In this document: positions 11,656 to 28,128 of the stretch, piece by piece
Layout: every line of letters begins with the position of its first letter
Numbering within the stretch: the stretch's first letter is position 1
Notes under the pieces: generated by a model
Told to the model about the DNA's origin: nothing
Seen by the model: only the letters and a program-made list of their open reading frames with translations
Databases searched by the model: none
Position numbers and translations under genes: made by a program
Source of the DNA: an uncultured Methanosarcinales archaeon
Lineage (GTDB): Archaea > Nanobdellota > Nanobdellia > Woesearchaeales > JACPBV01
Assembly: GCA_964492935.1 (NCBI GenBank)
Contig: CAZBLF010000011.1
Span: 1-35,017 of the forward strand
Direction: 5' to 3'
Length of the DNA: 35,017 nt

Positions 11656-12342
11656 TTACTCGTCTTTTATCTGTCTCGTCAGCCAATTCTTTTCTACTAC
11701 TTGAAATTCGCCCGGCTTTAGGTTGAGTTTTAGATTTCCGATCATGATTCTCTTTAGGAATTCTATTTTGTATCCTAATTTTGCGAAGAGTTTCTTGAGA
11801 ATGTGCTTTCTTCCTTCGTGGATGCTTAACGTGACTTTCCTGCCGTTGTGCTTGACATCGTAGGTATTTACGGTTTTTGCATCGATTTCTTCTCCGTCTT
11901 TAATGTTTTTGATGTGCTCTTCGGAGACTGCATTATTAAGGACTAATTCGTAGCGTTTTGTGATGTTGTATCGTGGATGGATGATCTTGTTTGCGAACTC
12001 TCCGTCGTTTGTGAGAATCATTAGGCCTTCTGAATCTTTATCAAGTCTTCCAATGGGGAAGATTCTTTTCGGGCAGTTTACCAAATCTACAATTGTTTTT
12101 GTTCTGGTGTCTTTTGCTGCTGATAGGATGCCGATGGGTTTGTTGACGAGAATGTAGATGCCTTTTTGTCTTATGATCTTTTTTCCGTTTACTTCGATGA
12201 TTGCCTTATTTGCTTCGGCAGAATCTCCTATCTTTGCGGTGACGCCATCTACCTTTACTTTGCCTTCCTTAATGAGGTCTTCGGCGTTTCGTCTAGAGCA
12301 GACTCCGGCGCGTGCAATTATTTTCTGTACTCTTTCTAACAT
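11656..12342 (-). CDS. RsuA/RluB-family rRNA pseudouridine synthase with S4 domain
   Basis: ERVQKIIARAGVCSRR, NKPIG, IFPIGRLDKDSEGL, HPRY, EGRKH. Confidence 0.93.
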   Translation of the reverse strand: MLERVQKIIARAGVCSRRNAEDLIKEGKVKVDGVTAKIGDSAEANKAIIEVNGKKIIRQKGIYILVNKPIGILSAAKDTRTKTIVDLVNCPKRIFPIGRLDKDSEGLMILTNDGEFANKIIHPRYNITKRYELVLNNAVSEEHIKNIKDGEEIDAKTVNTYDVKHNGRKVTLSIHEGRKHILKKLFAKLGYKIEFLKRIMIGNLKLNLKPGEFQVVEKNWLTRQIKDE

Positions 12343-16286: not shown

Positions 16287-16292
16287 AAAAAG

Positions 16293-16405
16293 TAGCGGAG
16301 AGTGGATTTGAACCACTGACCTGAGGGTTCCTCAGAAGTACTTATGAGCCATCCGGTCTATATTGATTATAGATCTCCGGGCACTCCTGGCTGCCCTACT
16401 CCGCT
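16293..16405 (-). tRNA. tRNA-iMet(CAT) with two introns (24 nt at 29/30, 16351-16374; 14 nt at 37/38, 16329-16342)
   Basis: AGCGGAG/CTCCGCT acceptor with A1-U72, GGGC/GCCC D-stem, spliced GAGGG/CCCTC anticodon stem with three G-C pairs, TTCAAAT T-loop; mature length 75 nt; no encoded CCA. Confidence 0.93.
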
Positions 16406-17150: not shown

Positions 17151-17191
17151 CGGCAAGCTTTTTATACACCGTTTCAATCCAGACTCTTCTT

Positions 17192-17297
17192 GCCGAGGTC
17201 GCATAATCTGGTATTGCGCAAGATTGCTAGGATTTTTATGAAAGCGTAAATATCTTGTTTCCTTCGGGATATGCGGGTTCAAATCCCACCCTCGGCG
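17192..17297 (+). tRNA. tRNA-Ser(GCT) with a 22-nt intron at 37/38 (17230-17251)
   Basis: GCCGAGG/CCTCGGC acceptor, G discriminator, CAAGA/TCTTG anticodon stem, long variable arm with TTCG loop, BHB helix TTGC/GTAA; TATA at ~17159; T-run downstream. Confidence 0.9.
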
Positions 17298-17302
17298 TTT
17301 TT

Positions 17303-26518: not shown

Positions 26519-27067
26519 ATGAAAAAAATGCACTGGTATATGTTAATTGCTGCCTTCTGGTTAGTGCTGATTTTTGGATTTATTGGAGTTAAGGAGTTCA
26601 CTCTTCAGACGGGAGAGGAGGTTATTCTGAAAACTCGGCCTGTTGATCCTCGAGATCTTTTTAGAGGAGATTATGTCATTCTTTCGTACCAGATCTCCTC
26701 TGTCGATTTAGGTAGTTATGGCCTGTCTTCTGAAGATATTGGTCTGGGAGATACTCTCCATGTGGCATTAGATCGGGATTCTGAAGGATTTGGAATCATT
26801 TCTGGGGTTTCGGAGAGGTCGTTTGAAACGCTTTCGATTCGAGGAAAGGTCGTTGATATCTCTTCTGAGACTGTGGAACTGGAGTATGGTATCGAAAGTT
26901 ACTTTGTTCCTGAAGGTCAGGGATATCAGATTGAGCGCCAACTCCGTGACTCGCTTTCTGTAGCAGTAGTTGTAGATGATTTTGGAAATGCGGTTATTAA
27001 CTCCCTACTCATTGATGGAGAGGAAGTTACTGTAGAAAGTAATTATGATTCTCGATTAATCAGTTAG
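26519..27067 (+). CDS. GDYXXLXY-domain membrane-anchored protein
   Basis: L.T.PVDPRDLFRGDYVILSY and YGIESYFVPEGQG; usual partner of DUF2157. Confidence 0.9.
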   Translation: MKKMHWYMLIAAFWLVLIFGFIGVKEFTLQTGEEVILKTRPVDPRDLFRGDYVILSYQISSVDLGSYGLSSEDIGLGDTLHVALDRDSEGFGIISGVSERSFETLSIRGKVVDISSETVELEYGIESYFVPEGQGYQIERQLRDSLSVAVVVDDFGNAVINSLLIDGEEVTVESNYDSRLIS

Positions 27068-27364
27068 TTATCCGTTAATGATGTCGTTCTGAATTCTCTT
27101 TGCTTCATTAAATACAGATAGAAATATTTCTTCGGTGAACGAATCTTCAAGACCTTGCTCCTTGGCTAGGCCTTTGAGTCTGTTCATGATTTCGATCTCT
27201 CTGGCTTCGTCGTAGATAGGAAGTTCTTTCTTCTTCTTGTACTGAGCGATATCGTGAATGAGTTGAATTCTCTCTGCGAGTGCGGTGATGATGACGATAT
27301 CGGTACGATCGATATGTCTGCGAATCTTGTTAATTTTGTCCTTCTCAGTTGTTTGGTCTGACAT
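27068..27364 (-). CDS. Chorismate mutase, AroQ type
   Basis: IRRHIDRTD..I...LAER......IAQYKK....PIYDEARE. Confidence 0.85.
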   Translation of the reverse strand: MSDQTTEKDKINKIRRHIDRTDIVIITALAERIQLIHDIAQYKKKKELPIYDEAREIEIMNRLKGLAKEQGLEDSFTEEIFLSVFNEAKRIQNDIING

Positions 27365-27400
27365 ACTTACGAGGACTTTTTGGAGATATATAAATGTTGT

Positions 27401-27593
27401 GTTGCTTTACTCTTCATCAACGCTGAGTTGAGCAGTGGATGCTGCTTCGCATCACAACACGGTGCGATTATGAAATTTCTTCGAATTTTCATGCACCTCA
27501 ATGGGTTCTTAAAAATCGGAAATTTTTGGAACCCCCAGAAATCACTCGTGATTTCTCGTGGGCGTCAGCGTTGCTGATTACTCTTCATCAACG
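27401..27593. mobile_element. Putative non-autonomous structured insertion (MITE-like or ncRNA)
   Basis: 16-bp direct repeat TTACTCTTCATCAACG (27407-27422, 27578-27593); 13-bp inverted ends (12/13 match); four internal hairpins. Confidence 0.65.
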
Positions 27594-27859
27594 GTAAACA
27601 GTTGATTGTCGCCGCCAACATCGAACAATCCGGTTCTTGCCCCACAATCAAGCCAGCCGTGTGCGTAGTTGACGCAGGCAAACGCATTTACAAAATCGCC
27701 TTTAGAATGAAAATGGAGTGCGTCTTGATAGTAGCGGGTTGCCATATCAAGAGCGTCCTCTGCTTTTTCTTTTGCTGCAGAAATAATCTTTACTTTAGCT
27801 AGGGCACGCTTTGTAATATCTAGGTAGCGCGTAATCTTAGCAGGAGTGATTTCCTTCAT
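27578..27859 (-). CDS. DUF357-family protein
   Basis: MATRYYQDALHF..KGDFVNAFACVNYAHGWLDCGARTGLF. Confidence 0.88.
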   Translation of the reverse strand: MKEITPAKITRYLDITKRALAKVKIISAAKEKAEDALDMATRYYQDALHFHSKGDFVNAFACVNYAHGWLDCGARTGLFDVGGDNQLFTVDEE

Positions 27860-27861
27860 GG

Positions 27862-28128
27862 TTACTCTTCTGCTTTTACGGGTGCTTTTGTGCTTTTTTC
27901 GGGCGCTCCATAGCCTTCCACAACAGGAAGGGGGCGGGTTACGCTGATAGGCACTACACCTGCTTCGAATTCCTTCTTGGCAATCTCGACGGGGTTGTAC
28001 TTCAACTCCTTGAGATCTTTCTCTTCCAATTTGATGAGGAAGGGTGCACCAGAAGAGATCTGAAGAGCGCGAGCTCCGATGATCCTTGCGATTTCGTACT
28101 TGGTTAGCTTTTCTTTTTCTTCTGCCAT
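27862..28128 (-). CDS. rpoK: DNA-directed RNA polymerase subunit K (Rpo6)
   Basis: [22 protein letters not shown]...[17 protein letters not shown]. Confidence 0.95.

Follow-up and report, generated by a model that had tools for sequence, protein, structure and literature searches.

The structured segment between the DUF357 and chorismate mutase genes of an uncultured archaeon (GTDB order Woesearchaeales) is probably a decayed composite, one member of a MITE-like family whose copies move as DNA. It lies in the 35,017-nt stretch analysed here (the window), which is contig C11 of the genome referred to below as G000. Judged from its sequence, the window copy appears to be an old, degraded and nested member of a family of small non-coding mobile elements. 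This is a new family of miniature transposon, ordinary in kind save for an unexplained conserved asymmetric loop. The features of the locus are listed in Table 1, together with a second, classical MITE family of the same genus.

Table 1. Features at the DUF357-chorismate mutase junction (window positions) and locations of the second MITE (contig or locus and positions).
Feature	Position	Strand	Basis or remarks
Chorismate mutase gene, 98 aa; downstream neighbour	27068..27364	-	ORF; Pfam CM_2, E 1.3e-20
TATA-like A/T-rich box	27386..27395	-	~22 nt upstream of the chorismate mutase ATG; sequence reading
Left direct-repeat copy, GTTGCT + TTACTCTTCATCAACG	27401..27422	+	Repeat finder, sequence reading
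Closing stem P1, 5' arm	27414..27426	+	Inner part CAACGCTGA fits the usual family arm CAAYGCTGA
Extra hairpin (hairpin 1) breaking the conserved 5' junction	27427..27456	+	Consensus GAGGCACGG is here GAG, 30 additional nt, CACGG
Family core	27458..27507	+	CACGG, P2a of 5 bp (GGTGC/GCACC), 4-nt bulge GATT, hairpin P2b, CCTCAATGGG
Nested two-hairpin module (AAAAAT/ATTTTT + AGAAATC/GATTTCT)	27503..27556	+	Splits the conserved 3' junction AUGGGCG
Remainder of 3' junction (GGGCG) and P1 3' arm TCAGCGTTGCTGA	27560..27577	+	
Right direct-repeat copy	27578..27593	+	Final DUF357 codons (V D E E) and stop, reverse-complemented
DUF357 gene, 93 aa, intact	27578..27859	-	ORF; Pfam DUF357, E 1.4e-26
Second MITE, G000	C1:21850-21971, C3:23569-23715, C4:20334-20455, C13:8977-9098, C20:20793-20917, C21:2941-3062, C23:7322-7444, C30:3296-3417, C39:374-499, others		
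Second MITE, G001 (congeneric genome)	L048:1846-2040		

By direct reading, the element lies 49 nt from the chorismate mutase start. The TATA-like box is probably the promoter of a leaderless chorismate mutase mRNA, and it is not part of the element, since the ortholog in the one congeneric genome (G001) retains ATATATAAATGTT at this position. The direct repeat described in the first-pass annotation was recovered by a repeat finder at 27407-27422 and 27578-27593 with 100% identity, as were its 13-nt inverted arms at 27414-27426 and 27565-27577 (92%, one mismatch). Its hairpins are likewise present: the repeat finder gives 27470-27492, 27503-27534 and 27532-27561, and GATGC/GCATC at 27438-27453 is apparent by direct reading. 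The hexamer GTTGCT had been placed immediately 5' of both repeats, which holds for the left copy (27401-27406, abutting) and not for the right one, where GA intervenes between 27570-27575 and the repeat; the redundancy therefore amounts to 22 of 24 nt with a 2-nt indel. The last 9 nt of the left copy double as the outer part of the closing-stem 5' arm. The right copy is the ancestral one, because the congeneric DUF357 ortholog has an almost identical end (VDEKE before the stop). When folded, both strands of the element beat 200 of 200 shuffles (z -3.5 and -3.9). An assembly error, considered earlier as a source of the repeat, is excluded because contigs from three further studies (runs X3, X7 and X9) span 26900-28100 with 0, 2 and 0 differences; in metagenome run X2 the region is divided among three contigs. 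Run X1, from which this DNA may itself derive, was kept out of the comparison. The organism occurs in marine and vent metagenomes of 17 studies, and none of the runs listed for the locus is an RNA run.

The suspicion that this is a repeated structured element is borne out by DNA and covariance-model searches, which found both other copies and covarying homologues. A DNA search of the genome itself and its relatives matched only around hairpin 2, once on G000 contig C16, where a canonical copy stands at about 11781-11856, and twice in the congeneric genome. These three matches are short versions of ~76 nt, made up of closing stem, junction, bulged hairpin, junction and closing stem. The covariance model R1, derived from these three, matched G000 15 times (once as a reverse-strand echo) and G001 14 times; a further 12 genomes of the same taxonomic family gave no match. 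With 26 copies as its basis, model R2 placed the element at 16 sites in the window genome and at 14 in the congener, and it likewise found nothing in those 12 genomes, among them the unpublished G005 and G013. Outside the genus the distribution is patchy, in other families of the order: R2 matched 3 of 150 other genomes in an order sample and 9 of 150 in a 'phylum' sample in which every listed genome is labelled with the same order, including 7 of 16 genomes of family f95 and with 8 places in G176, all of these being minimum figures because stricter filters were used. A pattern scan for GGCACGG..CCTCNNTGGGCG in public genome and viral collections returned at least 120 genome loci and at least 119 viral loci; the matches listed appear to be chance hits in G+C-rich bacteria, and R2 matched none of the first 100 of the genome loci. 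Reading frames across the core differ between family copies, and the unit is non-coding; a small peptide was rejected on this ground and because the 3'-junction AUG becomes AUU or UUG in remote copies. The literature we consulted holds no description of this hairpin family, and the supplementary MITE lists of PMC11602168 might contain one.

The family unit is an imperfect hairpin of ~76-85 nt with two helices. Read 5' to 3', the consensus consists of a P1 5' arm of 10-15 nt of any sequence, YGA-GGCAC, GG NNN (P2a), the bulge RNUU, P2b with a variable tip, NNN CC, UCNAUGGGCG-UCR and the P1 3' arm. The part that is near-invariant across distant genomes, GCACGG / CCUCNAUKGGCR, contains an asymmetric internal loop, with GCAC on the 5' side and UCNAUKGGCR on the 3' side. 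Minimum-energy folds of five copies return the same structure with two added G-C pairs within the loop, which make it a 2-by-7 asymmetric loop. Some copies carry an additional hairpin between P2b and the 3' strand of P2a. An extra module of 40-70 nt (GAAGCGAGCGAGA...CGCTTCTCGCAACAG) is inserted at this position in G000 (C8:27759-27885, C3:58908-59049, C3:59843-59993 and C25:11834-11955) and in G001 (C52:5179-5331).

Seen against this unit, the window structure is not the single cloverleaf that was first proposed. It is a family core with small modules nested in it, as indicated by the recurrence of hairpins 3 and 4 in other genera: this module is single-copy in G000 and is found elsewhere at four places in G004 and one in G008. 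At the 3' junction of the window copy the order is CCTCAATGGG, hairpins 3 and 4, GGGCGTCAG. The core scores 37.1 bits against R1 (E 2e-07) and 31.3 bits against R2; the R1 match covers model positions 21-70 only, because the core motifs are partly broken. In G004 (L010:1300-1740, L062, L063 and L064), the 27503-27556 module is contained in a multi-hairpin repeat of >330 nt, present in four copies, with 2-3 internal tandem repeats of ~33 nt and long closing stems.

The pairing pattern of the family bears on a rival explanation, that of a functional structured RNA (protein-binding, processed or self-cleaving) that rides transposons or has been adopted by the host, with the window copy as an expanded or dead member. 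In the alignment, which is model-fitted and includes four reverse-strand rows so that its figures lean towards structure, pairing is seen in 89.7% of cells, whereas shuffles give 74.6% and slid partners 33-47%, and 21 of 26 pairs vary on both sides, a level reached by 0 of 500 shuffles. Optional hairpins at the tip and the junctions, as in many RNAs, also fit a structured RNA. Quasi-palindrome correction in DNA, however, can mimic covariation. Stem mismatches of the G-U and A-C types occur in similar numbers (32 vs 23, p 0.28), a balance to be expected of a DNA palindrome and not of a single functional RNA strand. The copies are also oriented at random with respect to their neighbours and have no promoter at a constant distance. 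TATA-like boxes, where present, lie by eye at variable distances on either side of the copies. On this evidence we regard the structured-RNA explanation as somewhat unlikely.

The asymmetric loop, which counts in favour of that explanation, is retained in at least five taxonomic families while all stems vary. In four orthologous pairs it differs at 5 of 60 positions, P1 at 23 of 96 and P2a at 8 of 40, which makes the loop ~3 times better conserved; some of the stem differences between orthologs are compensatory. Among copies within one genome, the stems all differ and the loop is nearly invariant. The pattern in the stems could result from quasi-palindrome correction, but the preservation of an asymmetric loop cannot. 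Each copy appears to be under selection for something, since neutral relics should not keep the loop while their stems vary, and the conserved loop hints at an undescribed function.

Rfam 15 was scanned, and no family fits the element: five matches in region 27300-27700, at 9-17 bits, all fall far below the gathering threshold, three canonical family copies gave no match on the element, and the absence of a match even at E values up to 10 speaks against a structured RNA. ARAGORN with default settings finds no tRNA or tmRNA in the window. Across the whole window Rfam reports only two tRNAs, both elsewhere. These are the intron-containing Met(CAT) (16292-16405, minus strand) and Ser(GCT) (17191-17298, plus strand), which the intron option of ARAGORN also detects and the default misses; many tRNA genes of this genome have introns of up to ~70 nt. 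C/D box, H/ACA, kink-turn, hammerhead and tetraloop-receptor motifs were compared by eye, and none fits the conserved positions.

A structural parallel is the archaeal bulge-helix-bulge intron. The unit has two bulges on opposite strands of a short helix, and each strand runs in the order helix, helix, bulge, helix, a topology that can be counted towards an RNA function. The canonical motif has a 3-nt bulge, a 4-bp helix and a 3-nt bulge; the bulges here are 4 nt and 5-7 nt around 5 bp, their sequences are conserved and the window copy is intergenic. Cutting at the bulges would not remove the element either, because the motif lies in its middle. It is conceivable, and in our judgement unlikely, that the invariant loop with its opposed bulges is the working part of an undescribed nucleic-acid module of the order, either an RNA or a folded single-strand recombination site. 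Such a module would hitch-hike on transposons that differ in their ends and be selected at ~15 sites, and the swapped-end redundancy at the window site would reflect a circular or tandem intermediate of more than one unit. As an RNA it could be a self-cleaving or endonuclease-processed motif or a protein-binding site; as DNA it could work like an integron attC. The attC analogy is functional: the family shares with these sites variable-sequence imperfect hairpins right behind stop codons and conserved extrahelical features, and no attC core sites are evident by eye in the element.

The preferred reading, of a MITE-like family that moves as DNA, draws on insertion polymorphism. When the 14 congeneric copies were compared with the corresponding G000 flanks, four sites were empty in G000 (C1, C4, C24 and C31), four were filled in both genomes, two were internally deleted remnants in G000 (C2 and C9, both of which keep ATGGGCGTC) and four were uncategorised. 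The four orthologous sites provide, for other family members, the empty alleles that a mobile element should leave. For the window site, no empty allele was seen in G001 or in four metagenome runs, and none is available from the congener because its DUF357-chorismate mutase junction is occupied by a different transposon, a member of a 134-nt family. At one polymorphic site (G001 L020 vs G000 C4:30005), the flanking genes overlap (ATGA) where the element is absent and are separated by a 115-nt insert where it is present; the insert supplies a TATA-like box for the downstream gene, and the end of the element completes a new stop codon.

Outside the genus, five remote copies (family f95 and other families) have the core within elements that bear outer inverted repeats of 14-16 nt and 8-10-bp target duplications, an anatomy typical of miniature transposons, and at least two of these copies are near-identical. 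Within the genus, the copy on C46 of G001 is bounded by an outer inverted repeat of 8 nt and a duplication of 7-8 nt, and three further inserts found only in G001 have duplications of 4-7 nt. Of the 28 copies in the genus, however, 26 have flanks no more alike than chance allows, and the repeat at the window site is 16-22 nt long.

The positions of the copies relative to genes follow a simple pattern. Among the 28 copies of the two congeners, 13 of 22 stop-facing flanks lie within -6 to +5 nt of the stop codon and 20 within 33 nt, and all 29 start-facing flanks keep a distance of at least 40 nt. Orientation is balanced: in 12 copies the 3' end faces a convergent stop, and in 10 the 5' end follows a co-directional one. 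Since every start-side flank keeps at least 40 nt, we take the copies to occupy simply the dispensable stop-to-promoter space, the only room that these compact genomes leave. The proposal that the element inserts at stop codons without breaking the gene thus stands in part: the window copy abuts the stop, the gene is intact and most relatives are placed likewise, but targeting of the stop as such finds no support.

With prokaryotic MITEs the family shares small size, lack of coding capacity, multiple intergenic copies, terminal inverted repeats, presence/absence polymorphism and, in some copies, short duplications. It differs from them in that its terminal stems vary within one genome, its asymmetric loop is invariant, no autonomous IS was found and most copies in the genus are without a recognisable target duplication; a textbook MITE of the same genome is near-uniform. 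In the census of PMC11602168, a Woesearchaea genome is among the archaea of highest MITE density. The textbook MITE of G000 measures ~134 nt, has a terminal inverted repeat of 14 nt (GTATGTGCATAGCA) and is bordered by target duplications of 8-9 bp. It has 12 copies in G000 (Table 1), most of them identical in sequence as printed, which points to recent activity, and no matching transposase was seen.

Searches for DDE_Tnp_1, Y1, Cas1, reverse transcriptase and tyrosine recombinase domains identified no mobilising enzyme for the hairpin family. DDE_Tnp_1 has no match in G000, G231 or G237, one sub-threshold match in G001 and three matches in G176; the outer repeat of the G176 copies was found only on the three small elements of that genome, without an autonomous insertion sequence. 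Cas1 or casposase genes were found in 0 of 5 genomes, and reverse transcriptases above the cut-off likewise in 0 of 5. Tyrosine recombinases are encoded in both congeneric genomes (2-3 in each, with two in G000); the G000 Phage_integrase matches lie only on contigs C42 and C57, and no integrase stands beside the element. The only Y1_Tnp gene of G000 lies at C16:1666-2010 (locus L049:1471-1899, minus strand), and none was found in G001. This lone gene encodes 142 aa of the IS200 type, has no TnpB partner and is flanked by unrelated small G+C-rich hairpins; it could be a domesticated or REP-type transposase.

The REP/RAYT system was considered for the family and rejected, as the unit is 76-85 nt with two helices and the sole Y1 gene of G000 is not flanked by the family (best score 4.4 bits within 1.5 kb). 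The resemblance to REP/BIME elements lies in imperfect palindromes at gene 3' ends, in both orientations and in some cases a few nucleotides from the stop, and in a CGTC tetranucleotide at the foot of one arm. As defined in PMC3733652, a REP is a palindrome of 20-40 nt with an unpaired GTAG or CGTC head, and GTAG- and CGTC-tagged REPs exist. REPs are single short hairpins, often in hundreds of copies and as dimers, whereas this family has ~15 copies with conserved loops.

The window repeat stands apart from the duplications of the family. In a null set of 756 mismatched left/right flank pairs from family copies, the maximum was 13 matched bases; the window has 17 of 18, and the only other copy in the genus to exceed the null is that on G000 C9 (15 of 16), giving 2 of 28. 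The locus reads GTTGCT, TTACTCT, TCATCAACG+CTGA, core, TCAG+CGTTGCTGA, TTACTCT, TCATCAACG. The 7-nt TTACTCT alone would fit the short duplication usual in the family, and the flanks outside it are the element's own ends in swapped order, which plain transposition does not explain. The P1 5' arm fits the family consensus CAAYGCTGA and is yet identical to the ancestral end of the gene. Partial copies of the 3' arm stand just 5' of the 5' arm at G000 C3:28265 and C4:7058 as well; at C3:28240-28280 and C4:7127-7150, as in the window, part of the element's own 3' junction or 3' arm precedes the 5' arm, which gives the impression that copying ran on past one unit length. One of three readings may account for the window repeat: the target may already have been a hairpin when 16-24 nt of it were duplicated; the element may have been copied beyond a single unit, in tandem or as a circle; or a double template switch may have run through CAACG and GTTG microhomologies. 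A further variant would combine a 7-nt duplication of TTACTCT with flanks that were made alike.

The same repeat invites comparison with integrase-mediated insertion, for which PMC3293823 gives a model based on duplicated tRNA ends. In this explanation, the segment would be a minimal integrative element, moved by a tyrosine recombinase, with the repeat as attL/attR. Its closing stem includes a direct as well as an inverted copy of the DUF357 end and, once the element folds as a single strand, would mimic the target duplex, much as integron attC sites or the attachment sites of single-stranded phages do. The repeat is indeed identical to the 3' end of the target gene, the 3' arm is an inverted copy of it and both genomes encode tyrosine recombinases. 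To our knowledge, however, every archaeon has a Xer-type recombinase, and the G000 genes are on other contigs. Since 26 of 28 family copies lack such repeats, other copies have 5-10-nt duplications and the 5' arm fits the family consensus and so was not simply copied from the gene, we consider an integrative origin very unlikely.

The first-pass annotation also raised a translation-coupled switch, which finds no support in the family. In this explanation, a cis-acting switch or terminator would operate in the mRNA, with TCAGCAACG pairing either with the coding end or with the distal copy and so coupling termination to downstream expression. On paper both pairings can form on the minus strand, and the stem begins right after the stop codon; in E. 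coli, according to PMC12306157, translation is affected by REP hairpins that lie no more than 15 nt from a stop codon. The duplicated arm is, however, confined to the window copy, long repeats occur in only 2 of 28 copies, and the family stands beside unrelated genes in both orientations (12 vs 10). In addition, the same-genus ortholog has a different transposon at the junction, and chorismate mutase apparently has a promoter of its own. A switch of this kind is therefore highly improbable. The window copy is most likely of no use to the DUF357 or the chorismate mutase gene.

We return to the MITE-like family and to how its members may have arrived. The unit, a variable closing stem of 10-15 bp, the conserved asymmetric loop, a 5-bp helix, a 4-nt bulge and a variable tip hairpin, would move by cut-and-paste through a transposase supplied in trans, a chemistry that we infer from the outer inverted repeats and 8-10-bp duplications in some genomes. 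Copies in this genus would be mostly old and persist, whichever way they face, only in the dispensable stretch that separates a stop codon from the promoter after it. The window copy would have inserted behind the DUF357 stop codon, ahead of the promoter of chorismate mutase, and later taken up small hairpin modules into both junction strands. Several findings count against a MITE: the lack of an autonomous partner, repeats beyond chance in only 2 of 28 copies, a window repeat of 16-22 rather than 8-10 nt, flanks in swapped order and a loop that is invariant despite varying stems.

For genome annotation, the locus is a warning: a 'cloverleaf-like' structure between genes of such genomes can consist of several small elements nested in one another. 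Marine archaea with small genomes like this one are regarded as streamlined, and against that picture this genome has ~16 members of the hairpin family and 12 of a classical MITE, both fitted into the few bases that separate stop codons from promoters. The family also offers a natural experiment, as its core is found in some genomes within a transposon that moved recently and in others as an old, conserved resident. If it is true that the loop is a protein or ribozyme site, the family would provide a new archaeal RNA/DNA motif with more than 40 covarying examples aligned.
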